A stretch of DNA of 64,000 nt from Bryobacterales bacterium (GCA_965204435.1 OZ241997.1:5817132-5881131), one strand, 5' to 3'; positions 4,502 to 47,392 are shown, counted from the stretch's first letter. Numbers and translations are program-made. The notes: generated by a model from the letters alone, not told the origin.

Positions 4502-5473
4502 TCAGGACAATCCCCTGTGACGGCGTACGTTGAGGGCCTTCCATTTGAGAAGCGGCTGGGCCTGGATCCGTTGTTGTAGGGTGGTGTTGGCGGTCAAGAG
4601 CGCCCCGTCGATTTCCCCTCGGTCCAACAGCAGATCTAGAAATGCGAGTTCGGCGTCGGTGAACGGCAGAACATTGGACAGCGCCCGCCTGCATTCTTCA
4701 ACGAGCCGCGCACCGTACTCCGCCAATGCCTCCTGATCTCGCGGTGGGCGGATGCGAAGGGTGGGTCCGAGTTGCCTCACCAGCTCCACGCTGTCGAAGT
4801 CTACATCGTCGGCCGAGACGGTCCGCCAGTCTCTGCGGTTCATACCCCCGTAGACAACGAAAGCAGTGCGGAGCCGTTCCCGCTGCAATTCGAACGCATC
4901 AAAGATGCGATGGCAGTCGAACAGGTCTCTTGCTTGCTGGCGCGAGAGTAGAGCAGAGAGCTTGCCGGCCACGAGCTCATGCAGGTCGAGAATGGGAACA
5001 CGCTTGGCTTGAAGATCCCCGAGCGGGTACGAATCGGCGTGGTGAATCTCCCAGAGCGGCTGCCGGTACATGAAATTGAAGTCCACCTCAATCTTCGCGG
5101 GCTGCCCGGCAAAGTTCGGGTAGCTGAGGCGCCACTTTCCGCCGGCGTGTTCGGCCGGCACTCTCCGGACAGCGAACCCTTCACGGGAAAAGACCGCTTG
5201 GGCCGCTTCCTCGATCCTAAGGCGGTCCGCCAGCATGTCCTCACGCCCTAGTGCACCGATGTAGTTGAGATCGATGTCTACTGACAACCTCGGGAGGTTG
5301 AGGACGAACAGGTTCAAGGCGGTGCCTCCCTTCAATACCCACTTCCCCCTCAGCGACGGGTGTGAGTTCAGGACGTTCAGAAGATGCGCTAGATGGAGAA
5401 CCTTCTCTACCGTACCCTCGTCGAACCCGTCGGGTCTGGCGATACTGCGGATTTCCGCCAGGGGGAATCTCAC
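4502..5473 (-). CDS. abiEii: AbiEii/AbiGii-family nucleotidyltransferase toxin (type IV TA / abortive infection)
   Basis: 323 aa. Contains KGGTALNLF and LSVDIDLNY motifs typical of DUF1814/AbiEii. The start overlaps the upstream antitoxin stop by 4 nt. Confidence 0.85.
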   Translation of the reverse strand: MRFPLAEIRSIARPDGFDEGTVEKVLHLAHLLNVLNSHPSLRGKWVLKGGTALNLFVLNLPRLSVDIDLNYIGALGREDMLADRLRIEEAAQAVFSREGFAVRRVPAEHAGGKWRLSYPNFAGQPAKIEVDFNFMYRQPLWEIHHADSYPLGDLQAKRVPILDLHELVAGKLSALLSRQQARDLFDCHRIFDAFELQRERLRTAFVVYGGMNRRDWRTVSADDVDFDSVELVRQLGPTLRIRPPRDQEALAEYGARLVEECRRALSNVLPFTDAELAFLDLLLDRGEIDGALLTANTTLQQRIQAQPLLKWKALNVRRHRGLS

Positions 5474-6309
5474 AGCGTTTCCCCCCAGGACCGATCTAGG
5501 ATTTCGGCCGGGATCATGAGGTTCCAGTCCTTGACCCAGCGGCAGCCTTTGGGTCGGCCGCGTGTCAGGTAGTGTGGCCGGCGCGGACAGAGTTCGCGCA
5601 GCGCCTCGAGGTGTGCCTCCTCCACCATCAACGGCTTGCGCTGCTGCTCCAGGAAGAATCCCACCTTGGCGGCGGTAGTCGCATTCCCCAGCAGTCGGGT
5701 GTAGGCGATGACCTGATCGAGGTCAAAAAACTCCACAGACTCCAGAGACCGCCAGATCTCCTCCCAGCCTCCGGACAACTCCGGCCGGTCCAGCACATCT
5801 ACCAGAGTGCGCTCGTGGTTAGTCACCCGTAGTGCGACGCCAGAGCGATCATGGCGGGTGACCCCGAACATCGCCTCGCCCTTCGCCAAGAGCGGCAATG
5901 GTGTGGGAGCGCCCCGGAACTCGTGCGACTGGAAGGTGAGCGGGAGCGACCTGCCCGCCGAGACATATACCAGCTGCCAATGGGCCGAGTAGGCCCTGCC
6001 GTGGAATTCCAAGGCCGTGTGATAGGCCAGCACGGAGTCCTCGGTCATCTTGGCCGCCACCAAGTACGGATCAACCGTCATGGAGGCCGCGTCCATGCCC
6101 CAGGGCACGGTCGTATATAGACCGCGACGCACTCGGAGGATGCGGCGCTGCTTGCGGTGATAGGCCAGCAGAGAGTTGCGTGTGTTCGTGTTGCGTGATC
6201 CCCGATCGTGCAGATAACGGTCCAACTCGTCTACCGTAAATACAGGGTGCCGTTCCAAGAAGCGATTGAGCCTGACGGGACCGTTCGTTTGATGATCGGT
6301 CGACATCAC
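5470..6309 (-). CDS. abiEi: AbiEi-family antitoxin / transcriptional regulator
   Basis: 279 aa with an N-terminal wHTH-like segment (FTVDELDRYL) and a C-terminal AbiEi_4-like region (LDRPELSGGWEEIWRSLE). It lies directly upstream of abiEii. Start is GTG 6309 or ATG 6306. Confidence 0.85.
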   Translation of the reverse strand: MMSTDHQTNGPVRLNRFLERHPVFTVDELDRYLHDRGSRNTNTRNSLLAYHRKQRRILRVRRGLYTTVPWGMDAASMTVDPYLVAAKMTEDSVLAYHTALEFHGRAYSAHWQLVYVSAGRSLPLTFQSHEFRGAPTPLPLLAKGEAMFGVTRHDRSGVALRVTNHERTLVDVLDRPELSGGWEEIWRSLESVEFFDLDQVIAYTRLLGNATTAAKVGFFLEQQRKPLMVEEAHLEALRELCPRRPHYLTRGRPKGCRWVKDWNLMIPAEILDRSWGETL

Positions 6310-6316
6310 ACTAGTT

Positions 6317-6345
6317 AATTTAGTTGTTTCCAGTTAATTTGTCAA
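6317..6345 (-). promoter_or_regulatory. Sigma70-like promoter of abiEi-abiEii (TTGACA-17 nt-TAAATT) embedded in short repeats
   Basis: On the minus strand, TTGACA is at 6345-6340 and TAAATT at 6322-6317. It ends about 8 nt before the start codon. AAATTAACT occurs twice, and GTCAAA...TTTGAC form an inverted repeat just upstream. Confidence 0.4.
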
Positions 6346-6415
6346 AAAAGGATTTGACGAAACGTCGAAATACTAGGCAGATTGCTCTGAGTCTCTGACC
6401 TGAAACACCATCATC

Positions 6416-6735
6416 CTATTGTTCCGTGGGCTGACGTTCTACGTAGCTGAGCGCTGCGCGAGCAAGCAAACTGGACCGGGTTTCGCCTTCTCGCGCCGCC
6501 GCCGCGCCCACGATTGCCAGAACGTGCGCTGGACCGTGATGTTGATCCGCCTCGTCTTGCTCTAGCTTGGAGGCATCGACATTCACGAGCGCCCAGATGC
6601 CACCCTTGTAATGCTCGCTCGCTCAGTGCGTTTCGAGCGATTCCCTTGCGGGTCTGGATTCTCCCTCCATCAACAGTCCCTCCAGATGGCAGGAGATGGC
6701 CTCGTGAGTAGATTCGACGGCTTCCTCAAGCGTAT
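6416..6735 (-). pseudogene. hicB: hicB antitoxin remnant (5'-truncated, in-frame TGA)
   Basis: Translates to GDTLEEAVESTHEAISCHLEGLLMEGESRPARESLETH*ASEHYKGGIWALVNVDASKLE...AAAAREGETRSSLLARAALSYVERQ. This matches the HicB N-domain end plus the RHH tail. The N-terminus is cut at the junction with the ASPIC fragment, and the in-frame stop is at 6623-6625. Confidence 0.7.
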
Positions 6736-6736
6736 C

Positions 6737-6932
6737 GCCGGGCGGTGACGCGTAGCGGAAGTTACTTGGCTGCTCGGGACCCCGAGTGTTCTTCGGAACT
6801 GGCCAGCGGCGGGTGCCGGAAAGCCTGACCGTGACCTGGCCGAGCGAAGCGGTGTCGAGGTGCGGGGATCTGCAAGCCAACGCGGTGAACGTGATCTCAG
6901 AGACGCCCGGCTGTAACCCGGTTCCCCGCTGA
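6737..6932 (+). pseudogene. Decayed duplicate of the CRTAC1/ASPIC gene 3' end (right copy of the direct repeat)
   Basis: About 80% identical by eye to 3946-4140. A 1-nt deletion (gggacccc versus gggatcccc) shifts the frame. After the shift it reads PRVFFGTGQRRVPESLTVTWPSEAVS...NVISETPGCNPVPR*. Confidence 0.8.
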
Positions 6933-7033
6933 GTCCCCCTTGCTCTGTTGCGGCCGCTAAGGATTCGCTTGCGCCGAGCCGCGGCCAGCTTGGTAGACTC
7001 TGTTTCGCTTCGCTGATCGCGAGTTGAACCGTA

Positions 7034-8476: not shown

Positions 8477-8477
8477 T

Positions 8478-11145: not shown

Positions 11146-11166
11146 CACGGTCGTCAACCGCGCCGC

Positions 11167-17434: not shown

Positions 17435-17884
17435 CGGCCCTGTTCTCAGTGCGAGAATGTCAAGCTGAAGCTACGGGTTGCCGGGTGACCGAACGGCGAG
17501 ATCTCCTTGGGTCCCCACTGTGCCCCTCTGCCTCCCTGCTCAGCCTTCGGAGCAAACTTGTCGAGGGCTGCTACCACTTCGGTGAATAGTGTTCGCCGAA
17601 TACTGGCCTGTGCTACGTGGCCCGCGCGACTGCGCTTCTGACTTAGAGAGTGAGAATTAAAGCAACCGGCACTGATGGGGTACTCCTGCCTTCGCCGCGC
17701 TCTTCGGTTAGGGAAACGCTCGGTTGAGAGTCCAACTCACTCTCGCATCACCCAGCGTGGGAACTACGCTTGCAAGATTCGGCTTTCGAGTGAGCAAATG
17801 CGACGCTTGGGCAGCTTGTGGAGCCCAGCCGAGGGCCTTGATTCGGAGCCCACGACGATCTAACCGGGTCTGTATCCTTGTGTT

Positions 17885-19351
17885 GTGATTCGACGCGAAT
17901 TCCTCCAGTCCTCTCTTGCCGCCGCTAGCTCCACGCTTCTTCCGAGCTGTAGCGATTCCGGGCCAGAGCACGGGGCGGCCAAGCGACCGAATGTCGTTTT
18001 CATCCTCACCGATGACCAGCGCTGGGACTGCCTCTCGGCAGCTGGGCATCCGTTCCTAAAGACGCCCAATCTCGACCGGCTCGCCAACGAGGGTGTGAGG
18101 TTTGCCAACGCGTTCGTCACCACCTCGCTCTGTTCCCCTTCGCGGGCCAGCTTCCTTTCAGGACTCTACGCGCACTCGCACGGTGTGATGAACAACTTCA
18201 CCGAGTACCCCGCTGACTTGGCGAGTTTCCCCGTCGCCCTGCAGGATGCCGGCTACGAGACCGCCTATATCGGCAAGTGGCACATGGGCGAGGACAACGA
18301 CGAGAAGCGCCCTGGCTTCGACTACTGGATGAGCCACAAGGGCCAGGGCCAATACTGGGACACCACCTTCAACGTCAATGGCGAGCGTGGTGAGGTCAAG
18401 GGCTACTACTCGAACGTCGTCACGGACTTCGCCGTCGACTGGCTCGAACAGGAGCACGAAGAGCCGTTTCTTCTGTGTCTCGGCCACAAAGCGCCACACG
18501 GCGTCTGGATTCCCGATACGCCCTACGAGCATGTCTACGACGACCTTGAAGTGACCGAGCCCGAGACCGGGCGCCTACTCGAACCGCTGCCTGACTGGGT
18601 CGGCGAGCGCATCGAGACGTGGCACGGAATCGATGGCAACCTCTACGGGCTGGAGGACTTCGGCAAGTTTATCCGCAACTACCATGCGACGATCCTCTCG
18701 GTTGATGACTCGGTCGGCCGCATCTATGACGCACTCGAGCGGACGGGCAAACTCGATGAGACGCTGATCGTATTTGCCGGCGACAATGGATTCCTGCTGG
18801 GCGAACACGCCTCGATCGATAAGCGCACCATGTGGGAGGAGTCGATCCGCGTGCCGCTGCTGGTGCGCTATCCTCCACTGATCGATCAGCCGCGCGTCAT
18901 CGAGCAGCAAGTGCTGAACCTAGACGTCGCGCCTTCGATTGTCGACATCTGCGGGCTACCGCCGCTTGGCGACATCCACGGTCGCAGCTTCAAGCAACTC
19001 GTCAGCACGGGTGAAGATCCGGGTTGGCGCAAGAGTTGGCTTTACGAGTACAACTTCGAGACCCAGTTCCCGTACACGCCGAACGTGCGCGGCGTTCGCA
19101 CAGACGAGTGGAAGTACGTCCACTACCCCAACGGCGAAGGCCGACCCGAAACCCACAAGGCCGAACTTTATCGCGTTGCTGACGATCCGCTCGAGAAGCG
19201 CAACCTCATTGACGACCTGGTGCATGCCGACAAGCTGGCCGAGCTCCAGGCTGAGCTTGAAAGGCTCAAGCGGGAGACCGGTGCGGTTCCGGATGAGATG
19301 CCTGCCGACCCGGAACTGCGGATGGAACTGCCCGACAAGGACATTCGCTAG
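17885..19351 (+). CDS. Sulfatase (Cys-type)
   Basis: 488 aa. RREFL signal with lipobox-like LLPSCS. Contains PNVVFILTDDQR and CSPSRASFLSG. Confidence 0.9.
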   Translation: MIRREFLQSSLAAASSTLLPSCSDSGPEHGAAKRPNVVFILTDDQRWDCLSAAGHPFLKTPNLDRLANEGVRFANAFVTTSLCSPSRASFLSGLYAHSHGVMNNFTEYPADLASFPVALQDAGYETAYIGKWHMGEDNDEKRPGFDYWMSHKGQGQYWDTTFNVNGERGEVKGYYSNVVTDFAVDWLEQEHEEPFLLCLGHKAPHGVWIPDTPYEHVYDDLEVTEPETGRLLEPLPDWVGERIETWHGIDGNLYGLEDFGKFIRNYHATILSVDDSVGRIYDALERTGKLDETLIVFAGDNGFLLGEHASIDKRTMWEESIRVPLLVRYPPLIDQPRVIEQQVLNLDVAPSIVDICGLPPLGDIHGRSFKQLVSTGEDPGWRKSWLYEYNFETQFPYTPNVRGVRTDEWKYVHYPNGEGRPETHKAELYRVADDPLEKRNLIDDLVHADKLAELQAELERLKRETGAVPDEMPADPELRMELPDKDIR

Positions 19352-19645: not shown

Positions 19646-19879
19646 TCAGGAATCTTCGGCTTGCGAATGCACTCGGTCCAGTTCGTCGAGCACCGCCAAT
19701 CCGTGCTCGACTTTGCCGCGGGCCGCTCGCAACCGGAAACGCATCTCGGTATCGTGCTCGGTCGACGCACGGACGGAGAGTTCCCCCATCAGTTCGCTTA
19801 CGCTCACACCGCGTTGAGCGGCCATCGCCGCCAAGCGATCTCGATGGGCATCGGGTACCCGGATCGTCAATGTTGCCAT
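19646..19879 (-). CDS. hicB: Small RHH antitoxin of the short HicB-family type
   Basis: 77 aa: MATLTIRVPDAHRDRLAAMAAQRGVSVSELMGELS...TEMRFRLRAARG. GAAGGAGGAGG lies 7 nt upstream of the ATG. It sits directly downstream of the hicA pseudogene. Confidence 0.8.
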   Translation of the reverse strand: MATLTIRVPDAHRDRLAAMAAQRGVSVSELMGELSVRASTEHDTEMRFRLRAARGKVEHGLAVLDELDRVHSQAEDS

Positions 19880-19944: not shown

Positions 19945-20136
19945 CTACGATCCGATCGGTGGTACCGACAGCCGACGGCAGATCTTGCGGACCAGTGGGC
20001 TTGGGATCTCTGTATGGCGAGGTACAGCTTCAATTACCCCTGTTCCTGGATTCGACCAAAGCGAGTGAGATGCACCTTCGCGCTTGAGATAGCAGCCATG
20101 TTTGCGCAGGTGTCACAGCAGGCCGACGCGCTTCAT
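19945..20136 (-). pseudogene. hicA: hicA toxin with an opal stop at codon 8
   Basis: My own minus-strand translation is MKRVGLL*HLRKHGCYLKREGASHSLWSNPGTGVIEAVPRHTEIPSPLVRKICRRLSVPPIGS*. This is clear HicA-family sequence. The TGA is at 20115-20113, and I see no in-frame start after it. The gene is absent from the ORF track. Confidence 0.8.
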
Positions 20137-20348
20137 TGCACGACGATCGTGTCACGCTCGGCGTCGGCCGGTAATCCGCGAAGGCCTTCTTCGCGTCGGT
20201 CCTCAAGAACCAACGCGATGGCTTGCGCAAGACTCTCTCTCGCTTCGTCCTTCGTCCGTCCCTGCCCGTTAGCGCCTGGGATTTCGGGGCAGTACGCGAT
20301 GATCCATTGCTCGTCACGCTCGAAGATTGCTGTGAATTCGTTTTGCAT
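20133..20348 (-). CDS. hicB: Short HicB-family antitoxin (UPF0150 fold only)
   Basis: 71 aa from the internal ATG at 20348: MQNEFTAIFERDEQWIIAYCPEIPGANGQGRTKDEARESLAQAIALVLEDRREEG. Its stop overlaps the hicA start (ATGA at 20136-20133). Confidence 0.85.
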   Translation of the reverse strand: MQNEFTAIFERDEQWIIAYCPEIPGANGQGRTKDEARESLAQAIALVLEDRREEGLRGLPADAERDTIVVQ

Positions 20349-20558
20349 CGCCGGAAATCGGCATTCTACCAGCGAATCTCGCCTCGAAGTTCCAATCGGC
20401 CATAGCGGGGTTCTGTCAATAGATGGGCGACTAGTTCGAGAGTAGTCGCAACTGGAACGGCGTTGAGAGACGGAGGGCGAACAGCGAGGCTGATTCCGGA
20501 GGCGTCGCGTCGTCTGTTCCACCTGCCGGCAGTCGCCACCGATCAATGCCGCCGGCAA
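20349..20558 (-). pseudogene. Possible degenerate hicA, in frame with and directly upstream of the UPF0150 hicB
   Basis: The 70 codons upstream keep a HicA skeleton (RQV..RRL...VSQRRSSCDYSRTSRPSID..LWPIGTSRRDSLVECRF, compared with R.V..LL...V..RGSHRQFKHP..KPSDDLAPGTLNSILKQAGL). The GSH motif is lost and no stop precedes the hicB ATG. Confidence 0.35.
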
Positions 20559-22323: not shown

Positions 22324-22767
22324 CCTGGAGCGGCGACATTCAGGCCTAGCGGTACTGCCTCGGTGAGTGCCTCGCGGGAAGTCTCATCTGCGGTTGCTCC
22401 GCTTCGGAAGCGTGGTCTTGCCGGCCTGGCGGGGGCTCCAAAGGAAGAAGGTCTCGGTCCCAGCAGCGGGCAGATTCAAGGGACGGTTGAACCTCAAGTC
22501 CAAAATTTCATGAAATAATGCATTGCAACTCCCAAATTCCTCGCTTTCGGAGCGGCCAATGGCCGCGCAAATCGCCGAATTCTCGTAAACCTACCTAGCA
22601 TCAGGCATGCCGCTATTCGGCCGATACAGCACTGGCTAGTGGCACTGCCCTCAGCTCAGCCGTCGCTTCGCGTCAGGCGGGATGGTGCGCTCGTATAGGC
22701 ATGGCCCTGCAGGCCGACAGCCATGGTGGTGAGCTCTCGAACGATCCCATCGGCTACAATCGCCGCG

Positions 22768-25126: not shown

Positions 25127-25441
25127 CTACGCAGCCGCAGCCAGCCGCTTGCGGGCTTGCGCCAGATCGTAGCGCGCTTGACGCCATAGCCACGATTCCG
25201 CGCTGCCCCATCCCACGGACTCCAATCGGACGGCCATGTCCGGCGAGATCGCGCAATGACCGTGGATCACGCGGGACAGTGTCTTGCGATCCACGCCGAG
25301 CCGCTCAGCAGCCGTGCTCACGCTCGCCGCTCCGCCATGCGGCGCCGCTTCCGGTCCGATGCAGGCGTCCGCGATGGCCGCACCCGGATGCTGCGGATTC
25401 AGCCGCTGCCACGCATCCTCTCGCGCTTCGATCTCTCCCAT
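25127..25441 (-). CDS. higA: HigA-family HTH antitoxin
   Basis: 104 aa: HPGAAIADA...AAERLGVDRKTLSRVIHGHCAISPDMAVRLESVGWGSAESWLWRQARYDLAQAR. Confidence 0.85.
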   Translation of the reverse strand: MGEIEAREDAWQRLNPQHPGAAIADACIGPEAAPHGGAASVSTAAERLGVDRKTLSRVIHGHCAISPDMAVRLESVGWGSAESWLWRQARYDLAQARKRLAAAA

Positions 25442-25453
25442 GAGGCCCTCCTG

Positions 25454-25580
25454 TCGGTGGCGGTAGTCTGACTTCAGCTCACGGCGGGCTCTCGCAGGTG
25501 GCGAGCCACATCCCGCCAGAGACTCATGTTGGCAGGTGCGGGCTGCTGTTTGCGAGCCCGGGGAAAGGCTGGCCCGGGCT
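25454..25580 (-). pseudogene. higB: higB toxin remnant (frameshifted, stop lost, N-terminus missing)
   Basis: Minus-strand frames give VSGGMWLATCE (compare VSGNWRITFE) and then, after a 1-nt shift, ...SDYRH (compare EDYH*). These are followed by CGA where TGA is expected, then AGGAGG and the higA ATG. Only ~230 nt separate higA from the next gene. Confidence 0.45.
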
Positions 25581-30127: not shown

Positions 30128-30211
30128 GTTGCTGTAGGGCACTCTTGCGACACGGCCCGTCGGTCCGGCACGAAGGTAAGCACCGACGAGTTCTTCAGAC
30201 GACTGGGTGCC
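29993..30211. repeat. Left copy of the duplicated convergent junction (intact DUF1501 3' end plus decayed SMP-30 3' end)
   Basis: Colinear with 30561-30691 plus 32867-32945. An ungapped stretch of 88 nt across the DUF1501 stop has 67 matches by hand count. Confidence 0.75.
30132..30211 (-). pseudogene. Remnant of an SMP-30/gluconolactonase gene 3' end
   Basis: The minus strand reads VLTFVPDRRAVSQECPTA, against MLPFLPAQGPCRESAS* for the intact gene at 32891. The DNA block GGGCCGTGTCGC is identical. The stop codon is replaced by CAG. Confidence 0.5.
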
Positions 30212-30253
30212 GCTCATCGCCCGCAATCCCTCGAAGCGGCATGGCGCCCCGTT

Positions 30254-30484
30254 CTATTCGCCCCACGATGCTGCGGCCTCCCATCCTGTCAGGTCGCTTT
30301 CCACGTGCGGGGCGCGTTCGTATCCCAATCGGTCTTGCTCCTCCAGTCTCACTATGTGAAGACGTCGCAGGTGTTCCTTCAGAGCGTCTCGGATCAGAGC
30401 GGAGCGGTTCGTGCCAGCCCGACTAGCGGCTTCGTCAGCTCTAGCGAGAAGGTCGGCGTCGAGAACTACTTGGACTGTCTTCAC
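30254..30484 (-). CDS. CopG/RHH-family antitoxin-like protein with no adjacent toxin
   Basis: MKTVQVVLDADLLARADEAASRAGTNRSALIRDALKEHLRRL...EEQDRLGYERAP...WEAAASW from GTG 30484 (the track starts at 30505). This is the pattern seen in MazF/PemK-partner antitoxins. Confidence 0.75.
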   Translation of the reverse strand: MKTVQVVLDADLLARADEAASRAGTNRSALIRDALKEHLRRLHIVRLEEQDRLGYERAPHVESDLTGWEAAASWGE

Positions 30485-30560
30485 AACCTGCAAAATAGTC
30501 CACACCCAACGCTATAACTTGCTTGTAGGTATTCATGGGGTCATCGATCCATAGCTGCTA

Positions 30561-30691
30561 CACGTCTCTCAGCCGCTCCGCGCTGCAGAAGCAACGTGCT
30601 TGGCAAGGGTGTCCTAGCGACGCCAAGTTGACCTACCGCTTCTAGGGACGCGACTGCCGGCTGCCGGGTGTCGGTGGGTCGTTGTTCTAGA
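30561..30691 (+). pseudogene. Decayed DUF1501 3' end fragment, split by the IS (continues at 32867-32890)
   Basis: About 73-76% identical, ungapped, to 30043-30127. Contains an in-frame TAG and indels further upstream. Confidence 0.75.
30686..30691. repeat. Target-site duplication TCTAGA (left)
   Basis: The same hexamer directly flanks both IS termini. The paralogous uninterrupted site at 30108-30113 reads TCGAGA. Confidence 0.75.
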
Positions 30692-30838
30692 CCCAACTTA
30701 CCCCGACCACTTTTTGCGCTATGGGCCTTTGCGTGCCTGAGGCCCGGCACCTAACCTCTTCGCATTCAATAGCTTAGCCTCCGAGCACTACTGGCTATCC
30801 CTCCCAATGCGCCCAAAATGACCCCTCGAAAACCGTTT

Positions 30839-30936
30839 TTCCTAGTCATACAATATGACTTGCAGCAGTTGTCATTGATCCATTTATCTGCTATCATTGT
30901 TGCCAGTTAGAACCTGCTGGTTCCTAGTCATACAAT
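30839..30936. repeat. IS-internal 16-bp direct repeat pair TTCCTAGTCATACAAT (30839-30854 and 30921-30936)
   Basis: Exact repeat 82 bp apart. Each copy contains TACAAT. The second overlaps the transposase ATG at 30935. Confidence 0.8.
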
Positions 30937-32707
30937 GCACATCACCTCCTCTTTCGCCCGCAAGTCCCCCTGCCACCTCTTGCGCGAATCCTACTGGCGC
31001 AACGGCAAGGTCCACAAACGCACTCTCGCCAATCTCTCCGCTCTCCCCCAGCCCCTCATCGACCTGCTCAAGGCCGCCCTCGACCGCCAACTCCCTCTCG
31101 GCAGCCCCCACGCGCCCGTCCAGGCCGGGCGCGCGCGCCAGCACGGCGCCGTCTCCGCCCTGCTCGGCCTCGCCCGCAGCCTGCGCCTCGACCGCCTGCT
31201 CTTCCACCAACCCTGCCGCCAGCGCTCGCTGGCCCTCGCCCTGATCCTCGCCCGCCTGCTCAAGCCCGGCGCCAAGCTGCGCCTGGAACGCGAACTCGGC
31301 CCCGCCGGCCAAACCACCCTCGCCCACCTGCTCGACATCCGCAACGCACCCGTGGACGAACTCTACGACGCCATGGACTGGCTGCTCAAGCGCCAGCCCG
31401 CCATCGAGCGCAAGCTCGCCAAACTCCACCTCCGGCAAGGCGGCCTGGCCTTGTACGACCTCTCCTCCAGCTACGTCGAGGGCTCCTGCTGCCCGCTGGC
31501 CAAACGCGGCTACTCGCGCGACCATCGCTCCGACCGCCCCCAGATCACCTACGGCCTGCTGTGCAATCAGGACGGCTGCCCGATCGCGGTCGAGGCCTTC
31601 GCCGGCAACACCGCCGACCCCAGCACGCTCAGCAGCCAAGTCAACAAGTTGCGGCAACGCTTCGGCTTGCAACGGCTGGCCCTGGTCGGCGACCGCGGCA
31701 TGCTGGCCCAGACGCGCATCGCGGGCGAGCTGCAGCCAGCCGAGCTGGACTGGATCACGGCCCTGCGCCACGACAGCATTCGCAAGCTGGCTGCCGAGGG
31801 GCACTTCCAGCCCTCGCTGTTTGACACGCACGGCTTGGCCAGCATCACCGCGCCGGACTTCCCCGACGAGCGCCTGCTGGTGTGCTACAACCCGCTGGTG
31901 GCCGCCGAGCGGCGGCGCAAGCGCGCCGACTTGCTGGCCAGCACCGAGGCCGACCTGGCCGGGATGGCCAGCGCCTACGCGGCCGGCAAGATCGACCGCG
32001 ACGAGTTCAACCGGCGCTTGGGCACGCTGCGCAGGCGCAAGATGGGCAAGCACTTGCAGTGGTGCTTCGACGAGCACACGGAGGCCTTCAGCTCGACGCG
32101 CGACGAGGAGTCGATCGCGGCCGAGGCGCGCCTGGACGGCTTCTACGTGGTGCGCACCAGCCTGGCGGAGCAGGATCTGGACGATGCCGGGGTGGTGCGC
32201 GCCTACAAGAGCCTGGCGCGGGTGGAGCGGGCTTTCCGCTCACTCAAGACGAGCGGGCTGCGGGTGCGCCCGATCTTCCACTGGAAAGAGACGCGGGTGC
32301 GGGCGCACCTGCTGGTGTGCATGCTGGCGTACTACGTGGAATGGCACCTGCGGCGCCAGCTGGCGCCGCTGTTGTTCAGCGAGGAAGGCGAGCCCCAGCA
32401 TGCGGGCGGGCCGGTCGGGCCAGTGCAGCGCAGTGAGGCTGCCAAGCGTAAGGATCGCACGCGCCGGACGGCTGATGGGAGCCTGCCGGTGCAGAGCCTG
32501 GCAGACCTGTTGGCGGGGCTGGGCACGCTCAGCGCAGTGGAGTTGAAATACGCACAGGTGCCCGGCTATGCGGTGCCCACGCTGAGCGAGCTGGAGCCGT
32601 TACACGAGCGCGTGTTCGAGCTCCTGGGCTTCCAGCCCCACCCGGCACCGGCGCTGAGCGAGCCACCAGACAACCCAGGCAATGCGCCGCCCAAGACGCC
32701 AACCTAG
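30935..32707 (+). CDS. IS1634-family (IS4 superfamily) DDE transposase
   Basis: 590 aa. N-terminal YWRNGKVHKRTLANLS is typical of IS1634-type transposases. LYDLSSSY and LVGDRGM are candidate DD residues, and YKSLARVERAFRSLK is the Y-R-E-K-type motif. Confidence 0.85.
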   Translation: MHITSSFARKSPCHLLRESYWRNGKVHKRTLANLSALPQPLIDLLKAALDRQLPLGSPHAPVQAGRARQHGAVSALLGLARSLRLDRLLFHQPCRQRSLALALILARLLKPGAKLRLERELGPAGQTTLAHLLDIRNAPVDELYDAMDWLLKRQPAIERKLAKLHLRQGGLALYDLSSSYVEGSCCPLAKRGYSRDHRSDRPQITYGLLCNQDGCPIAVEAFAGNTADPSTLSSQVNKLRQRFGLQRLALVGDRGMLAQTRIAGELQPAELDWITALRHDSIRKLAAEGHFQPSLFDTHGLASITAPDFPDERLLVCYNPLVAAERRRKRADLLASTEADLAGMASAYAAGKIDRDEFNRRLGTLRRRKMGKHLQWCFDEHTEAFSSTRDEESIAAEARLDGFYVVRTSLAEQDLDDAGVVRAYKSLARVERAFRSLKTSGLRVRPIFHWKETRVRAHLLVCMLAYYVEWHLRRQLAPLLFSEEGEPQHAGGPVGPVQRSEAAKRKDRTRRTADGSLPVQSLADLLAGLGTLSAVELKYAQVPGYAVPTLSELEPLHERVFELLGFQPHPAPALSEPPDNPGNAPPKTPT

Positions 32708-32866
32708 TCACCAACGGCCTGTTCGAAATGCGGCTGTTCCGCCCAATGGCGTACGCAGCAGGGACTCGACGAAATCACCTAAGTGACTGATCCATCGCGA
32801 GGTACATCAGCCCAAGGTTGGAGCTTACGATGGCGTACAGCCATAAACTAGTTGGGGTAAGTTGGG

Positions 32867-32872
32867 TCTAGA
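32867..32872. repeat. Target-site duplication TCTAGA (right)
   Basis: See the left copy at 30686-30691. Confidence 0.75.
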
Positions 32873-32890
32873 AACTGCCGGCGTGAGCTG

Positions 32891-33754: not shown

Positions 33755-34031
33755 GGGCCGGGAAGCGACGTTCGTTCCAGCATATCGCTGCGTGATCAGG
33801 CCGAACCGTCCGATAATCTCGAGCGAACGGCCACGATCCTCCTCGGTCGTGCGCCGCAGAAACGAGGTGTGCTCTCCCCATAGGACCGGAGCTAAGCGGA
33901 ATCACAACACGAATCTGCCCGAGTACAGACATCTGCTAGTCTTCAGCGGTCGCACGATCCGTGTTCTGGGGTAGTTGTTGGAGTTGGTTGCGAGATTCCG
34001 AGCCTAGTAATGTTTATGATGGATTATGAAT

Positions 34032-34060
34032 TTGACTAAATTTATAATTTGCAGTAAATT
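34032..34060 (+). promoter_or_regulatory. Sigma70-like promoter of the ATPase gene (TTGACT-17 nt-TAAATT) in an AT-rich tract with tandem short repeats
   Basis: TTGACT at 34032-34037 and TAAATT at 34055-34060. TAAATTTAT occurs at 34037 and 34055. TTTAGTGG occurs at 34064 and 34073. Confidence 0.4.
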
Positions 34061-34093
34061 TATTTTAGTGGCTTTAGTGGGGTAAGTTTCAAA

Positions 34094-35299
34094 ATGACGA
34101 CATTCTCAAACCCCTTTCGCCCTGGCGCGGGTCACACGCCGCCCTATCTGGCTGGGAGAGAAACGGAGCGCAATGAGTTTCTAAGACTACTCAATCAACA
34201 GACAGTCTTGGAGAACATGGTTCTGACCGGGCTTCGAGGAGTGGGCAAGACAGTCCTGCTCGACTCGCTCAAGCCATTGGCAACGAGTCGAGGCTGGATA
34301 TGGGTCGGAGCTGATCTCTCCGAGTCCGCTAGCTTGAGCGAGCATAACTTGGCAACTCGCGTCTGTGCAGACCTGGCTCTGGTCACATCAAACATAGTCG
34401 TGGCCACGGAGGAGGTTAGGAGGGCAGGATTCTCTGCCGAGCGGGAAGAAATCCCTCGCACACTCGGATTCCGAGATTTGATGGATACCTACGAAAGAGT
34501 TCCCGGCTTGTCTCTCGACAAGATCAAGGGCGTACTTGGCGTTGCGTGGCGCGCTGTTTCCAGCATGCCGAACGTGCGTGGGATCGTCTTCGCCTACGAC
34601 GAAGCGCAGAACCTCGCGGACAGATCAGCTAATGAGCAGTATCCCTTGTCGTTGCTGCTTGATTCCTTTCAATCCCTGCAGCGGCAGGGATTTCCCATGA
34701 TGCTCGTTCTGACTGGTCTTCCGACCCTATTCCCCAAGCTAGTCGAGGCGAGAACATTCTCCGAGAGGATGTTCAGAGTTGTGTTCCTTGACCGCCTTTC
34801 CGAGAGCGAGAGCACGGAAGCAGTCCGCAGACCCATCGACGATGCAGAGTGTCCTGTCCGACTTGAAGGTGGCTCCGTGAGCAAGATCGTCAAGATGTCT
34901 GGAGGCTACCCGTACTTCATCCAGTTCATCTGCAAAGAGGTGTACGACGCATTTATTCAACGCCATGATCGAGGGGAAGATGCCTCCGTTCCGACTGCAG
35001 AGATTCAGCACAAGCTAGACACGGACTTCTTTTCAGGGCGATGGGAACGAGCGACTGATCGGCAGAGAGCACTGCTGTCTGTGATTTCTCGCCTTGAGAA
35101 CTGCGAAGAAGAGTTCACGGTCCAACAGGTGGTTGAAGAATCGCAACGGTCGTTGGAGAGACCGTTCGGCGGCAGCCAGGTCAGTCAGATGATGGTCGCC
35201 CTAGCATCCCAGGGGCTGGTGTACAAGAATCGGCACGGGAGGTACTCCTTTTCAGTGCCTCTATTGGGTCAATTCATCCGCAGGCAGATGCACGGTTAG
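34094..35299 (+). CDS. P-loop ATPase (AAA_16/archaeal-ATPase-like) with C-terminal winged-helix-like domain; function unknown
   Basis: 401 aa. NPFRPGAGHTPPYLAGRETE, then Walker A GLRGVGKT and Walker-B-like IVFAYDEAQNL. The C-terminal FTVQQVVEE...LASQGLVYKNRHGRYSF looks like a wHTH. G+C is lower than in the neighbouring genes. Confidence 0.75.
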   Translation: MTTFSNPFRPGAGHTPPYLAGRETERNEFLRLLNQQTVLENMVLTGLRGVGKTVLLDSLKPLATSRGWIWVGADLSESASLSEHNLATRVCADLALVTSNIVVATEEVRRAGFSAEREEIPRTLGFRDLMDTYERVPGLSLDKIKGVLGVAWRAVSSMPNVRGIVFAYDEAQNLADRSANEQYPLSLLLDSFQSLQRQGFPMMLVLTGLPTLFPKLVEARTFSERMFRVVFLDRLSESESTEAVRRPIDDAECPVRLEGGSVSKIVKMSGGYPYFIQFICKEVYDAFIQRHDRGEDASVPTAEIQHKLDTDFFSGRWERATDRQRALLSVISRLENCEEEFTVQQVVEESQRSLERPFGGSQVSQMMVALASQGLVYKNRHGRYSFSVPLLGQFIRRQMHG

Positions 35300-35692
35300 A
35301 ACCGATTTGGCTGTCGGCTCCCAGCAATACGGACCGGGCTCTTCGTACCGCCTTCCAGCAGTACAGGTGACTTCGCCGCAAGATGTCTGGTTGTCGCCGG
35401 GATTGTGCCAGAGCGTTTGGAGGGATCGAAACCGCAGCGTTTGCGGCGCTCGACGGAATTCTCTTCAGCGTCCGGCGGGCTCGAGTTACTGATCGGCTTG
35501 CGGGGCCGGAGCTCTCTTGGGCACCTGCTTTCTCAAATCGACGAGATCAAGGCACGGCGCAACGGACGGCACGCTGGTGCGCTTTTCCGCGCAGCCGGGC
35601 ACTACGACCATCGCCAGCACAAGTGAGAATCGGCTCGTGGGCTGTTTCAGAGCGTATTCGTGGTTCGCTGGACCGATTCTCTCTCTAGAGTT

Positions 35693-41079: not shown

Positions 41080-41105
41080 CAAGGTAGCAACCGGTTGCTA
41101 CCTTG
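41080..41105. promoter_or_regulatory. 26-bp perfect palindrome, putative operator of the Phd-VapC module
   Basis: CAAGGTAGCAACC|GGTTGCTACCTTG, with every position checked for complementarity. It ends 6 nt before the antitoxin ATG at 41112. Confidence 0.55.
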
Positions 41106-41111
41106 AATCGC

Positions 41112-41414
41112 ATGAGAGCGGTCGGGATCAAGGTGCTCAAGAGTCGGCTCAGCGAGTACATGCGACTGGCAGCGGCCGGGGAGACCATTCTGGTTACCGA
41201 CCGTGATCGGGTCGTGGCGGAAATAGGCCCACCTCGGGAATCAAAGAGCCCCGTCTTGGGGGATGCGGTGCTGGCCGAAGCGGTGCGCAAGGGTTGGTTG
41301 ACACCTCCGGCCGTGCGTCTAGACGGCCCTCCACCTAGGCCGAAGCCGGTTCTGCCGCTACAAGAAATGCTCGCGGACCTAGAGGTCGACCGAAGCGACC
41401 GGTCAAAGTCGTAG
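41112..41414 (+). CDS. Phd/YefM-type antitoxin
   Basis: MRAVGIKVLKSRLSEYMRLAAAGETILVTDRDRVVAEIGPP. It lies directly upstream of a PIN gene. Confidence 0.8.
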   Translation: MRAVGIKVLKSRLSEYMRLAAAGETILVTDRDRVVAEIGPPRESKSPVLGDAVLAEAVRKGWLTPPAVRLDGPPPRPKPVLPLQEMLADLEVDRSDRSKS

Positions 41415-41422
41415 ACACGGCC

Positions 41423-41797
41423 GTGGCCCTTGCGCATCTCCTCGCGGAGGACCGCCGCCCGCCGCCCGCACTCTGGGAAGGGACCCTCGTCGCCAGCCGA
41501 TTGATCGAGTACGAGATTTGGACTCGGCTACACGCGTACAAGCTATCGGAGTCCCACGGCGAAGCAGCCCACGGAATCATCGAGCGCATCGCGTTGGTGG
41601 AGTTGGCTCCTCCAGTAGTTGAGCGGGCCTTGGACGAGTTCCCTTGTCCTGTGCGCACCCTCGACGCTCTGCATCTGGCGACGTTCGACTTTCTGTGGCG
41701 CCAAGGACAGCCGATCAAGCTTGCGAGCTACGACCACCGGATGGTCGCCGCAGCCCGTGCCATGGGAATGCCCTTGCTGGACATGCGAGCTAGTTGA
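41423..41797 (+). CDS. vapC: PIN-domain VapC toxin, probably N-terminally disabled (no start codon upstream of the catalytic Asp)
   Basis: Homology begins at 41402 (VKVVDTAVALAHLL...). The first in-frame start is GTG 41423, after the VVDT Asp. The remaining acidic residues (IEYE, TLDALHLA, SYDHR) are present. Confidence 0.7.
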   Translation: MALAHLLAEDRRPPPALWEGTLVASRLIEYEIWTRLHAYKLSESHGEAAHGIIERIALVELAPPVVERALDEFPCPVRTLDALHLATFDFLWRQGQPIKLASYDHRMVAAARAMGMPLLDMRAS

Positions 41798-43522: not shown

Positions 43523-43576
43523 AGCGTCGCCTGCTGGTAGCGGTAATCCCTTTCTTGCGGACGCTCCGGACTCGGT

Positions 43577-46306
43577 CTACGCCTGCGGCGTGAAACGGAG
43601 CGTCACGATTTCCCAAGGGCGGATTTGGAACGACGCTTGGTCGCCGTCGTGCCTGATGCTGGGAGATGCCAGCGGCTTGCCGTTGAAGTCCACCGCTTGA
43701 CACGAAGACGCCCGCATCGGCAGGTGGACCTTGACAGTGCCGTTGCGGCCGACAGCGTCGTAGAGGCGGATCTCGTACCCTCCGTCGCGGTAGAGCCAGC
43801 TGGAAGCGGCGATGCTGTCCGGTGTCGCCGACAGCAGGCTCTTGCTCAGCGGCAGGTCCGCTCCCGCGCGGCTATAGACGAGCCGCGACGAGCAGGCATG
43901 GGTGCGCTCGGCCGCCCGCTGCGGCACTCGCGCAGTGCGCCAGTCGCCTCCGTGAGGAACCAGCGAATAGCGGAAGCTGTGCTCGCCTTGGCCCGTGAAA
44001 TAAGGATTTGCGAACAGGTTCTCCATTTCGCCCCGTGGATCAATCGTCATCATCAGGATGTGCTCGAGCGAACGCTTCTCCGGGTGGAACAGCCAGCCCC
44101 GCTTGCCCTCGGCGCCTAGCACTGCCAGGCCCTTGCCGGCTGCGCTGTAGTCGACCCAGTGGTGCGCGAAGAACACGTTCCTGCGCAGCAACTCCTCGTT
44201 CGGGTCCGTGCCGTCCCCCCAGGGCTCGCCCGACAGGTCTCGCGGTTCGGCCCCGAACGGGATCCCCGCCGTTGGAATGGCATCGAAGTCAAACAGCGCA
44301 TTGGCCGCGAAGTAGCCGGAGCCTCCGACACTGTCGATGTCGCAAGCGAAGTCGATCTGTTCCCGGTTGTGGTCCAGCGATACGGTCAGCTCGACCGAGT
44401 GGTCGCCAATGTGACCGGTCATCTTGGCCGAACTGCGCAGGGGGCCGTGTTCTACAAGCCGCCATCGAGCGCCTTGGATGTGTTCCTCGCCGGTCACCGG
44501 TCCGCCGTGCCACGGCCAGGGATCTTCGTTCTTGTAGAACACAACGTTTCCAGCCCGTCGATACGTGCTGCCGCGCCGCTTGTCGTGTATCGCCCGCACT
44601 CCGCCCGCGTCCAGCTCGACCCGGGCGAACTCGCTCTCCACGGCGCTCAAGGGCTCGTCTGGATAGCTCGGCTCCTCGTCCCCGTCCACCCGCACGACGC
44701 GCAAGGTCGTGTATCCCAGGGCGGGCACCGTGATGTCGGCCAGCAGCCAGGCTTCCTTGTAGGTGTTCTTGGCGCCGGGGGGAAGGTGTTCGCTGGAGTT
44801 GTTGAAGTGGCGCACCCGCAGCAACTGGTGGGGCCGCTCGGCCCCATCGGCGTCGACCAGCTTGAGCTTCGTGAACCTCGGTTCGGCAAAGACTGCCTTG
44901 ATCTCGACGGGTCCTTGGCGCTCCCAGGCCAGCGGATTGAACACAGCGATCGTCTGTGTTTCGCCGTCTGTCTTGATGCGACGTGTCAGGTGGCGCATCG
45001 CCTCCTTGCGAAGCCTGTCGGCTTGGAAGGTCACGTTCCGCCCCACTTCGATGGCGTCCGGCATGTCCTCATCGCCGACGTAGAGACCGTCGTGGGGGTA
45101 CAGCGTGAGCGCTTCGTGCCACAGGTCCTCCATCTTGGCCTCGGGGTAGGCCGCGCCCACTTGGGCCGCGAGGGCGCTGTAAGTCTCCGCCTCGACGAGC
45201 TCGTTGTTCACGCGGTCGCGCCAGTTGTCCAGGCCGTGGCTGCCGCACTGCCCGTACCAGAACGGCCAGCCAACGGGATCGACCGGTCCGCTGAAGCGCG
45301 GGATCGCCGAGCGCGCCTTCTCGAGTTCGGCGAAATACTCTGTGGGCGTTACAAAGCGTAGCGGCGTCGACTCGCGCTGCTGCCACGCTTTGACGAACCC
45401 AGGCATGTCAAGCGTGGGCTCTCCATCTGCGGCAGCGTTGTAGGTCGGCAGGGAAAGCGGCAGCGTGTGGTCGAGGCCGACTGGCACCCAGATGATCTTG
45501 GTTTCGCTGGCCGGCATCAGGAAGCGCAGCGCCGAATCGTACAGCGCCCGGACCGCGCCTTCCCAGTCATCTTCGTAAGCATTCAGCTCGTCCAGGTAGC
45601 CGCCCGGACCCTTGCCCATGCCCCAACCGCCGGCCAGCCAGCCGTACGGGCCGTAAGTCAGGGTCACCTCGCTGCCGTCAAGACCTTCCCAGATGAACTC
45701 CCGCTTGTAACCCTTGCGGTCCAGCGCCCAGATGGGCCGCGTGAACCGGTAGTAGTCGTAGCCGGCCTTGCGCAGGATTTGCGGCATCTGCGTGTGGCCA
45801 GGATGGATGTCGATAAAGGAGGCGACGTCGAGCTTGGCGTCCGGAAACTCACGCTCGAAAAACTTCCGGCCCAGCGTCATGTTGCGGATCACCGCCTCGG
45901 GCTCGTTGAACGGGTTGTCGTTGTTGACGACGGTGCCCGCCGAGATTCCTACGCGGCCTTCTTGGGAGAAGCGCTTCAACTCGGCGTAGACATCCGGTTT
46001 GAGCTCGGCCGTGCGATCAATACGCTCCAGCTTGGCGTCGATGAACCACTTGAAGTTCTCGTCACGCTGCATGATCTCCACCGCTCGCTCGTCGATTAGC
46101 GCCGCGCGTGCCCAGTGCCAAGCCTCCGAAGCGAACCAGGAAAAGTCGTTGTGACTGTAGGGAACAAGCAAGATCTTTGCGCCGGCTATCTTTTCCCGAA
46201 CCTCCTCATAGGAGGTGGACTCCGGGTCGCCCACCTGGGCCGCAGCTTGCGCCACCGCTCCGAGCAGGGCCATCATGCCGAGGAACTCGCGTCGGTCAAC
46301 CGCCAT
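43577..46306 (-). CDS. GH38-like glycoside hydrolase (alpha-mannosidase family), TAT-exported
   Basis: MAVDRREFLGMMALLGA from ATG 46306. Contains LLVPYSHNDFSW (the GH38 HxDxxW-type motif) and FIDIHPGHTQMPQILRKAGYDYYRFTR. Confidence 0.75.
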   Translation of the reverse strand: MAVDRREFLGMMALLGAVAQAAAQVGDPESTSYEEVREKIAGAKILLVPYSHNDFSWFASEAWHWARAALIDERAVEIMQRDENFKWFIDAKLERIDRTAELKPDVYAELKRFSQEGRVGISAGTVVNNDNPFNEPEAVIRNMTLGRKFFEREFPDAKLDVASFIDIHPGHTQMPQILRKAGYDYYRFTRPIWALDRKGYKREFIWEGLDGSEVTLTYGPYGWLAGGWGMGKGPGGYLDELNAYEDDWEGAVRALYDSALRFLMPASETKIIWVPVGLDHTLPLSLPTYNAAADGEPTLDMPGFVKAWQQRESTPLRFVTPTEYFAELEKARSAIPRFSGPVDPVGWPFWYGQCGSHGLDNWRDRVNNELVEAETYSALAAQVGAAYPEAKMEDLWHEALTLYPHDGLYVGDEDMPDAIEVGRNVTFQADRLRKEAMRHLTRRIKTDGETQTIAVFNPLAWERQGPVEIKAVFAEPRFTKLKLVDADGAERPHQLLRVRHFNNSSEHLPPGAKNTYKEAWLLADITVPALGYTTLRVVRVDGDEEPSYPDEPLSAVESEFARVELDAGGVRAIHDKRRGSTYRRAGNVVFYKNEDPWPWHGGPVTGEEHIQGARWRLVEHGPLRSSAKMTGHIGDHSVELTVSLDHNREQIDFACDIDSVGGSGYFAANALFDFDAIPTAGIPFGAEPRDLSGEPWGDGTDPNEELLRRNVFFAHHWVDYSAAGKGLAVLGAEGKRGWLFHPEKRSLEHILMMTIDPRGEMENLFANPYFTGQGEHSFRYSLVPHGGDWRTARVPQRAAERTHACSSRLVYSRAGADLPLSKSLLSATPDSIAASSWLYRDGGYEIRLYDAVGRNGTVKVHLPMRASSCQAVDFNGKPLASPSIRHDGDQASFQIRPWEIVTLRFTPQA

Positions 46307-46686
46307 ACGCAACAGACTACACCAGCGCGGCGGCGGCTTCGTTGCGTGACCGGACTGCACCCGAGTGCGGTTGGCTAGCAGCCAAGATCACTCGCCCCGG
46401 GGCGGACCATGCTCTGGTCGCTCCAATGAGGGTACGTCCGAGCCCCTCGGCTGGAGCCCGTTGGGCGCTCTCGAAGCCGCGCTGGTGTGTCCTGTTCTGT
46501 TCCGCTCGCGATCGCTTCGGGAACCTGCATGGAGTAGTCGCACGCTGCGTCGTCCTGCAGTGCCGGTCGCGACCTCTCGTGGCCAAGTGGCAGGGCCACT
46601 TGTGCACCGAGGATGTTGAGAGGGCAGGATGAGGGTTGCAAGAAACATGCTCTAGATGCGGATTACCGTGCGTGAAATGCGTAATT

Positions 46687-46699
46687 CTGTAAAATACAG
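46687..46699. promoter_or_regulatory. Short palindrome CTGTAAAATACAG just upstream of the second Phd-VapC module
   Basis: 5-bp arms with a 3-nt spacer, ending 4 nt before ATG 46704. Operator role is a guess. Confidence 0.25.
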
Positions 46700-46703
46700 A
46701 CTT

Positions 46704-46973
46704 ATGGAGCATACGATTCAGGCCACCGAGCTTGCCCGCAACCTCGGGGATGTCCTGTCCAAGGTGCGCTATCGCCGAGACTCGTTTGTCATCAAGCGGA
46801 ACGGAAGGCCAGTGGCGCGAGTCGTGCCGGTTGAGCCACACGCTGACGAAGCCACTCTTGGAGAAGCGCTCGCCGCGTGGTGCGATGGTGCCTCGGGCGA
46901 TCGCGAGTTCGCCGATGACCTCGACGCCGTCAACGCATCTGACAAGCCCCCGACGGATCGATGGGAGTCGTAG
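46704..46973 (+). CDS. Phd/YefM-type antitoxin
   Basis: [43 protein letters not shown] from ATG 46704 (the track starts at 46656). Confidence 0.8.
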
Positions 46974-47392
46974 TCGATACGAGTGCGCTCGTGGCCGCCG
47001 AGCGTGGTCGCGAAACCCAGTCAGCTGGTGCTCAATTGACGTGGAGCGATCTGCTTGGACACCTAGCCAACGAGAGCGCCGTGCTGCCGGCCGTCGTGTA
47101 CGCGGAACTGCTTGCCGGGGTGCATCTCGCCAGCAGCGACCGACAAGCGACGCTCCGTCGGGCTCGAGTTGACGCCCTCACAGCACGCGTGCCGATCATC
47201 GAATTCAATGCTGCCATCGCCCGCCACTGGGCGCGGGTGTTCGCCGAACTTCGCCGCTCTGGCGAAGCCATTCCGGCGAACGACCTTGCCATTGCCGCGA
47301 CGGCTTTGCATCTGGACTTCGCGGTGTTGGTGGGACCCTCTGGCGAACGGCACTTCCGACGAGTCGCGGGTCTTGAGGTGGAGCAGCTGTAG
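46961..47392 (+). CDS. vapC: PIN-domain VapC toxin (apparently intact)
   Basis: [14 protein letters not shown]...VYAELLAG...[12 protein letters not shown]. Overlaps the antitoxin by 13 nt. Confidence 0.85.

Follow-up and report, generated by a model that had tools for sequence, protein, structure and literature searches.

In Escherichia coli, as summarized in PMC7167474, which reviews the decay of toxin-antitoxin (TA) systems in that species, many lineages have an inactivated toxin gene in the ccdO157 module beside an antitoxin that is still functional or intact (Mine et al. 2009, Genetics 181:1557). In Photorhabdus, 185 toxin-only pseudogenes stand against 8 antitoxin-only ones (Belot et al. 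2026, Mol Biol Evol; PMC13617665). The same study presents a stepwise model in which modules are acquired through mobile genetic elements at permissive intergenic spots, undergo toxin pseudogenisation or deletion, and are then lost, with independent acquisitions at the same spots. This work describes seven TA-type loci from five TA families within a 64,000-nucleotide stretch of the genome of a Bryobacterales bacterium (GCA_965204435.1 OZ241997.1:5817132-5881131), hereafter referred to as the window. It is a fresh instance of the already described toxin-first erosion, in a different phylum.

The likeness to ccdO157, as far as the summary of that system goes, lies in a chromosomal type II TA module at a conserved site, which is read as the slow decay of a selfish module. 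CcdAB is, however, a different family in a different phylum, and in that case one locus was followed across a species, whereas here five families are found in 64 kb. In addition, toxin and antitoxin activity of ccdO157 was tested experimentally according to the same source, whereas the window loci are known from sequence. Photorhabdus belongs to the Gammaproteobacteria and comes with experimental validation, whereas the present case is a single window of an uncultured soil member of the Acidobacteriota, assessed through sequence evidence.

The window has a G+C content of about 63%; within the GTDB genome collection it comes closest to metagenome-assembled genomes (MAGs) of uncultured Bryobacterales (Acidobacteriota). 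According to an open reading frame (ORF) map based on G+C content at third codon positions (GC3) and to Pfam, the long genes encode sulfatases, ASPIC/UnbV, PSCyt/PSD1, an SSF transporter, a GH38 glycosidase and similar others, and the small TA-type genes occupy the gaps between them (Table 1). Domain content, gene order and overlaps of 4 to 13 nt agree with the AbiE, HicAB, HigBA, MazEF and VapBC families. Both genes are intact in two loci (abiEi/abiEii and the phd-vapC pair at 46.7 kb), the toxin is disabled beside an intact antitoxin in four (hicA/hicB, higB/higA, mazF/mazE and vapC'/phd at 41 kb), and both sides are dead in the remaining one (hicB' at 6.4 kb, without hicA). Unlike typical TA families, four of the seven loci have no functional toxin gene. 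Scanned in every frame, the intergenic gaps from 4 to 48 kb yielded no further TA-type domain.

Relatives of the window (handles beginning with L) were reached via HigA, a 124-residue VapC call, a contig scan, and homologues of the neighbouring sulfatase. All of them are MAGs or metagenome contigs; L093 and L094 represent the L024 lineage, and L088 is the L007 genome. Exact-protein look-ups of hicB, the 103-residue phd, the RHH gene at 19646, a 766-residue neighbour and AbiEii returned no match, likely owing to differences in start calls or between strains.

The window very probably shows a single, known life cycle of chromosomal TA modules, caught at several of its stages. Each module would have arrived separately, at an intergenic site, through horizontal transfer. 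If the antitoxin were lost first, the remaining toxin would be expected from established TA biology to kill or arrest the cell, so that only toxin-first lineages survive. The lesions observed in the toxins are a nonsense codon (hicA), deletions (higB, mazF) and loss of the start codon (vapC). The orphan antitoxin would then linger under weakened purifying selection, plausibly through autoregulation, cross-neutralisation or anti-addiction. Later the antitoxin would itself decay, as hicB' at 6416 and the hicB of L012 have done, and the locus would finally be deleted whole.

Table 1. Coordinates of TA-type genes, their remnants and island borders in the window.
Feature	Position	Strand	Description	Basis
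Direct repeat, copy 1	3946-4145	+	Present 3' end of the ASPIC/UnbV gene (2197-4140); left island border	Repeat search
abiEii	4502-5473	-	Toxin (type IV TA nucleotidyltransferase), 323 aa, intact	Pfam AbiEii 1.3e-30; PADLOC
abiEi	5470-6309	-	Antitoxin/regulator, 279 aa, intact	PADLOC
hicB'	6416-6739	-	Pseudogene, 5'-truncated, in-frame TGA at 6623-6625	Pfam HicB_lk_antitox 1.1e-18
Direct repeat, copy 2	6736-6934	+	Orphaned native ASPIC 3' end; right island border	Pfam UnbV_ASPIC fragment 1.1e-5
RHH gene	19646-19879	-	Antitoxin-type, 77 aa	Pfam RHH_1 3.4e-4
hicA'	19945-20136	-	Toxin pseudogene, 63 codons, TGA at codon 8 (20113-20115)	Pfam HicA_toxin
hicB	20133-20348	-	Antitoxin, 71 aa, probable HicB/UPF0150 fold only, intact	Weak Pfam; PDB 2yzt
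higA	25127-25441	-	Antitoxin, 104 aa, intact orphan	TIGR02607 antidote_HigA
higB scar	25442-25472	-	Deletion scar, about 4 terminal codons plus junction	Alignment with relatives
mazF'	30195-30266	-	Remnant, first 23 codons (VGRIERGAMPLRG...) then stop	Comparison with relatives
mazE	30254-30505	-	RHH antitoxin, 83 aa, intact	Pfam RHH_1 1.4e-7, 31.7 bits
phd (41 kb)	41103-41414	+	phd/yefM-type antitoxin, intact, 3 codons longer	Pfam PhdYeFM 1e-5
vapC'	41402-41797	+	PIN toxin without start codon	Junction comparison with relatives
phd (46.7 kb)	46656-46973	+	phd/yefM-type antitoxin, intact	Pfam PhdYeFM 5.5e-7, 29.7 bits (cut-off 29.8)
vapC (46.7 kb)	46961-47392	+	PIN toxin, 143 aa, intact	Pfam PIN 3.3e-15, 57.2 bits, profile positions 1-119/120

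In the hic locus, the hicB stop overlaps the hicA start (ATGA). The HicB product falls below the Pfam thresholds for UPF0150/HicB_lk (E about 0.08) and matches PDB entry 2yzt (TTHA1756) with E = 5.5e-4. The toxin frame reads MKRVGLL*HLRKHG, and the Pfam HicA_toxin profile (cut-off 27 bits) scores it at 29.1 bits as found and at 36.2 bits once the stop is repaired. The opal codon reported in the initial annotation is thus confirmed; the HicA domain is present, in a gene that offers no open reading frame for it. The same codon-8 TGA is found in L024 and L008, the latter with a further stop at W27. In L007 codon 8 encodes Arg; the frame shifts after codon 23, and the W27 stop recurs. In the window and in these three genomes hicB is intact, being 94-97% identical to the window copy in the relatives. 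L012 also has an Arg at codon 8, followed by a later frameshift, and its hicB contains two stops. No intact hicA exists among the sampled lineages. Recoding of the TGA was rejected because relatives hold extra stops and frameshifts.

The gene at 19646, which the initial annotation had missed, sits 68 bases downstream of hicA' and is one of a widespread family of roughly 77-residue proteins, plasmid members of which are annotated as "HicB family antitoxin" and lie behind a PIN toxin. Given the PIN toxin upstream of these plasmid homologues, a PIN remnant was sought beside the window gene, and Pfam gave no PIN signal in the window frames. The HicB of the window would consist of the 71-residue fold without a DNA-binding domain, and a separate ribbon-helix-helix (RHH) gene follows hicA; one possibility is that hicB-hicA-RHH formed a three-gene Hic system in which the DNA-binding RHH protein was encoded separately. 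A second possible hicA, proposed at 20558, was discarded, as none of the six frames has a Pfam match there and the sequence is an in-frame 5' extension of the hicB ORF.

The HigA product scores 64.1 bits (8e-18) against TIGR02607, above the cut-off of 47.7, in agreement with the intact higA of the initial annotation. Its claim that higB persists as frameshifted remnants did not hold. Pfam returned no HigB match in the three minus-strand frames upstream of higA, and this null profile search led to the comparison with L008 and L011, which exposed a deletion: both genomes encode an intact HigB of 94 residues (Pfam HigB-like_toxin 1.4e-13), which in the window has been removed by a deletion of about 330 bp. 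A tblastn search with the L008 HigB recovered from the window the scar of about four codons and nothing else. The scar codons read DYRH in the window and NYHH* in relatives, and the junction aligns as ...GACTACCGCCACCGA vs ...AACTACCACCACTGA. The deletion is common to the window, L007 and L024; L001-L003, which were assembled from other samples and show 96.7-98.8% identity, share it and align collinearly with the window. L009 and L012 lack higBA altogether. In terms of the HigBA family, the window has a HigA antidote gene and no HigB toxin gene.

The RHH gene at 30254 had been described as having no toxin at all, and it turns out to be a mazE overlapped by the 23-codon remnant of a MazF/PemK toxin, the remainder of which is deleted. 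In L007, L010 and L011 mazE is followed by a full PemK/MazF of 107 residues (Pfam PemK_toxin 1e-14). The antitoxin is conserved in L007, L024, L011, L010 and L012 at 77-86% amino acid identity. The toxin lacks its first 24 codons in L024 and carries a stop and a truncation in L012. Together with the 3' deletion in the window, this amounts to three independent mazF lesions, and mazE is open in every lineage. The arrangement of a MazEF/PemIK system, i.e. an RHH antitoxin followed by a full PemK/MazF, is therefore incomplete in the window.

At 30685-32873, 180 bp upstream of mazE, the window carries a specific insertion sequence (IS), which is bounded by 32-nt terminal inverted repeats (88% complementary) and encodes a 590-residue DDE_Tnp_1 transposase (30935-32707); its G+C content is about 71% and its GC3 0.91. 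L007, L024 and L011 lack this IS and so, to judge from the length of the contig, does SRR33343646_8924 of a 99.9%-identical strain.

In the phd-vapC' pair at 41 kb, intact versions of the module are available from L088, L089 and L091, where a 97-residue Phd is joined through GTGA to a VapC of 130 or 131 residues. At their junction (...CGGTGACCTACATAGACACC) phd ends in ...CGG TGA, and this TGA stop overlaps the GTG start of vapC. In the window, L004-L006 and L087 the junction instead reads ...CGGTCAAAGTCGTAGACACG: the vapC start has changed from GTG to GTC (41402-41404), and the same change turns the phd stop from TGA to TCA. The junction is identical in the window, L004, L005 and L006, which come from four samples and two studies, and the lesion is also found in L087. 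A lone G-to-C point mutation as the entire lesion was rejected: the hit on start and stop is real, yet it lies within nine substitutions in the first 24 nt of the junction. The PIN frame of vapC' reads ...RPVKVVDTAVALAHLL, and neither ATG, GTG nor TTG occurs between the upstream stop (41336) and the Asp of VVDT, as the initial annotation had stated. The closest VapC homologues are mostly 131 residues long and span a 131-residue reconstruction of the window gene end to end; many begin with MTYIDTSVALAHLL (MTYIDTS). Of the four acidic residues expected of a VapBC toxin, the window gene hence does not supply the full set from a start codon of its own.

The 130-residue VapC of L088 (6001-6393), counted above as intact, has Glu for Asp in the TLDALHLAT motif and an altered C-terminus, and may be attenuated.

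Some of the toxins classed here as disabled might nevertheless still be made, with their loci active, through reinitiation or a non-canonical start in vapC' and through readthrough of the TGA in hicA. We consider this quite improbable. The next in-frame start of vapC' is the GTG at 41423, only 8 nt past the new phd stop (TAG, 41412-41414), and would yield 124 residues. All 124 codons are open; relative to L087 they show 11 synonymous and 9-10 nonsynonymous changes, i.e. a ratio of nonsynonymous to synonymous rates (dN/dS, or ω) of 0.26-0.29 (binomial P = 0.007), and conservation extends to the three PIN acidic residues that are left. The gene is moreover 100% identical in nucleotides among four assemblies while the neighbouring phd varies. 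The 41423 product, however, lacks the first conserved catalytic Asp, which from general knowledge of PIN/VapC proteins should leave it catalytically impaired, and it reaches 16.3 bits against the Pfam PIN cut-off of 23.6, compared with 30.8 bits for the 131-residue L011 form. The first seven codons of vapC' have diverged at 9 of 24 nt, like untranslated sequence. A -1 frameshift fusing Phd to VapC was also discarded, as no X_XXY_YYZ slippery site was seen on inspecting the junction by eye. As for hicA, the W27 stop, the frameshifts and the change from His to Arg in the G-x-H motif in relatives are those of a typical dead gene.

It is also unlikely, if somewhat less so, that the segment 41423-41797 represents a domesticated, catalytically crippled PIN protein, translated by termination-reinitiation after the lengthened phd and kept by selection. 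If this were true, the domesticated protein could act as a co-repressor, as a partner stabilising Phd, or as a decoy, and the G-to-C change that kills the toxin start and the antitoxin stop would be the switch. This apparently constrained start-less PIN gene is the sole point of the window that could lead somewhere new.

With 0 differences over 396 nt of vapC' among the window, L004, L005 and L006, dN/dS is uninformative among these closest strains. In the same strains the neighbouring phd differs at 3-8 positions and the flanks at about 1%, a pattern suggestive of a recent sweep or of a recombination tract covering vapC'.

Taking all loci together, at least seven toxin-first events can be counted in the sampled lineages (hicA, higB, three in mazF, vapC, and abiEii in the L024 lineage), against zero antitoxin-first events. 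No intact toxin was found beside a broken antitoxin in these lineages, and the antitoxin lesions are confined to loci that no longer have a working toxin, namely to the hicB of L012 and to hicB'. Among related Bryobacterales, some modules have empty sites and others have filled ones. Toxins intact in some relatives, independent lesions and no antitoxin-first case together form the pattern to be expected of toxin-first erosion, and this is the pattern found. In this respect the initial annotation, which held that toxin loss is ongoing while antitoxins persist, is borne out by the relatives and by the independence of the lesions. Its further proposal, that a role in anti-addiction or regulation is why the antitoxins are retained, was not: dN/dS gives hints only, and hicB' is dead.

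According to a rival explanation, which is possible though we regard it as the less probable course, selection keeps the orphan antitoxins, possibly along with the truncated VapC, as domesticated transcriptional regulators or as factors acting in anti-addiction or cross-neutralisation against incoming plasmid, phage or paralogous toxins, and they are not simply on their way to decay. The anti-addiction model, from the same school of work as the TA-decay studies, does offer a reason for keeping an antitoxin after its own toxin has become useless. As summarized in PMC7167474, where the references establishing the concept are given, it was developed for a complete chromosomal ccd facing plasmid ccd (Saavedra De Bast, Mine & Van Melderen 2008, J Bacteriol 190:4603), and was shown for ccd, not for orphan HigA, HicB or MazE. 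In the present data, dN/dS was estimated by the Nei-Gojobori method, with 5-30 substitutions per comparison. After toxin loss ω remains below 1: it is 0.29-0.48 for orphan higA among lineages without higB (P = 0.003 at 0.29), 0.14-0.19 for hicB (P = 0.01-0.08), and 0.38-0.48 for mazE between the window and L007 or L024, within a range of 0.17-0.48 across relatives. Furthermore, the higA frame has stayed intact in three lineages with the common higB deletion, which are about 0.07-0.2 apart in dS, and five species have conserved mazE, among them two more lineages whose mazF is dead. The ω of orphan higA is nevertheless above the 0.09-0.19 obtained in comparisons with L008 and L011, which kept higB, and this points to relaxation. 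Neighbouring housekeeping genes have ω of 0.06-0.19, the RHH gene at 19646 has about 0.3-1.1 overall, and hicB' and the L012 hicB show that antitoxins eventually decay. Given the small substitution counts, these values show no more than a constraint that is relaxed, yet not absent.

Several points count against reading the window as toxin-first erosion followed by slow decay of the antitoxin. In hicA, the patterns of the stop at R8 and the stop at W27 are incompatible with one simple tree, and recombination or recurrence has therefore to be assumed. The start-less vapC' is unlike a free-running pseudogene, as its frame is open, its ω is about 0.27, and it has no nonsynonymous excess: relative to the outgroup L091, its nonsynonymous change is no more than that of the intact L088 copy. 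The RHH gene at 19646 is nearly neutral in comparison with L007 and L008 (ω about 0.8-1.1). More generally, each dN/dS value draws on a very small number of substitutions and branches recur between the pairwise comparisons, which makes the P values approximate. Finally, the mazF deletion of the window is backed by an independent assembly only indirectly, through contig SRR33343646_8924, the length of which fits a state with the IS absent and mazF deleted.

This last point, along with all relatives being MAGs or metagenome contigs, also speaks for the lesions having arisen as artefacts during sequencing, assembly or binning of this metagenome-derived genome. We nevertheless deem such artefacts extremely improbable. 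The same vapC junction was recovered from four samples and two studies, the higB deletion recurs in L001-L003, L007 and L024, and the hicA codon-8 stop is present in two other MAGs (L024 and L008). In addition, homopolymer indels are not involved: the lesions consist of base substitutions and of clean deletions exceeding 300 bp. The concern, raised in the initial annotation, that the lesions might be assembly errors is thus countered for hicA, higB and vapC, whose lesions are common to independent assemblies.

The toxin-first pattern is hereby extended to an uncultured lineage of the Acidobacteriota, with five TA families at different stages and with relatives that preserve the "before" states. 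The general view of TA biology is unchanged by this case. With regard to annotation, where such genomes contain orphan RHH, helix-turn-helix (HTH) or HicB genes, these ought to be interpreted as relics of TA modules, and lesions such as a hit on a shared GTGA start/stop, clean deletions and nonsense codons are easily missed.

At 46.7 kb, the phd and vapC genes overlap by 13 nt, and the arrangement of a Phd/YefM-type antitoxin overlapping a full PIN toxin qualifies as a VapBC system, in line with its earlier description as intact. The pair is present in L087, L088 and L089 and absent in L091, and the dN/dS of its vapC is 0.13-0.44.

In the abiE locus, the two genes overlap by GTGA. The PADLOC profiles match nearly from end to end, AbiEii with 6.8e-102 over positions 6-305 of 306 and AbiEi with 1.3e-114 over positions 2-264 of 265. 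AbiEii homologues of 320-330 residues align over their full length, and the GGTAL and SVDID motifs are present in the translation. Adjacent full-length AbiEi and AbiEii genes in one operon agree with the AbiE family, and the module is intact as previously claimed.

The initial annotation placed each locus alone in its gap, whereas abiE and hicB' share a single island. Its borders are direct repeats of about 200 bp, 79-94% identical according to the repeat search. In L095 the ASPIC gene is directly followed by the sulfatase gene, without the abiE island, and therefore this genome represents the empty site and the segment between 4.1 and 6.9 kb is an island that was inserted together with a substitute end for the gene. 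The single L095 copy aligns to both repeat copies of the window, and copy 2 resembles the ASPIC 3' end of L095.

Within the island, the hicB' match covers positions 27-123 of the 123 in the HicB_lk_antitox profile only and runs through the TGA, and no hicA partner was found by Pfam in any frame, so that the truncation, the TGA and the missing hicA were correctly noted at first. The 5' truncation at 6739 coincides with the direct repeat. In L093 and L094 the corresponding fragment has a Gly at the position of the window's TGA and a nonsense codon elsewhere. Given the 5' truncation and this different nonsense codon, hicB' is decaying as a pseudogene; it is neither an intact antitoxin nor one that has been retained.

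L093 and L094 also carry the island, with abiEii cut to 74 residues and a Uma2-family (PF05685) gene in place of its 3' two-thirds.

As side observations on this island, the repeat copy beside the sulfatase gene looks native, and the copy that terminates the ASPIC gene seems to be island-borne. With its 2.6 kb, the abiE/hicB' island resembles an integrative element that targets the 3' end of a gene, of which no integrase remains. In L093 the Uma2 replacement region spans 5047-6217, and in both L093 and L094 the 74-residue AbiEii stub adjoins an intact abiEi.

Other sites in the window also vary among relatives. At 22384-22503 (- strand) lies the stub of an AAA_14/DUF4143 ATPase gene, comprising its first 39 or so codons (including LWSPRQAGKTTL), with the junction at about 22392-22399. 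At this site L002, L007, L024 and L008 hold 1.2-3.1 kb more, annotated in L002 as a 388-residue AAA_14/DUF4143 protein, and therefore the window has undergone a strain-specific deletion. The intergenic gap at 17435-17884 is another variable spot: L007 has about 2.2 kb of extra DNA (1417-3623) there, at window position 17460 or so, and L009 and L012 are without both the sulfatase gene at 17885-19351 and the RHH gene at 19646. Lastly, an island of low G+C content (about 53%) at 33850-35670 contains a 401-residue AAA_16 ATPase gene (34094-35299), with no PADLOC match. This island is absent in L024, L011 and L009, and L007 has a larger, different insert at the same place.

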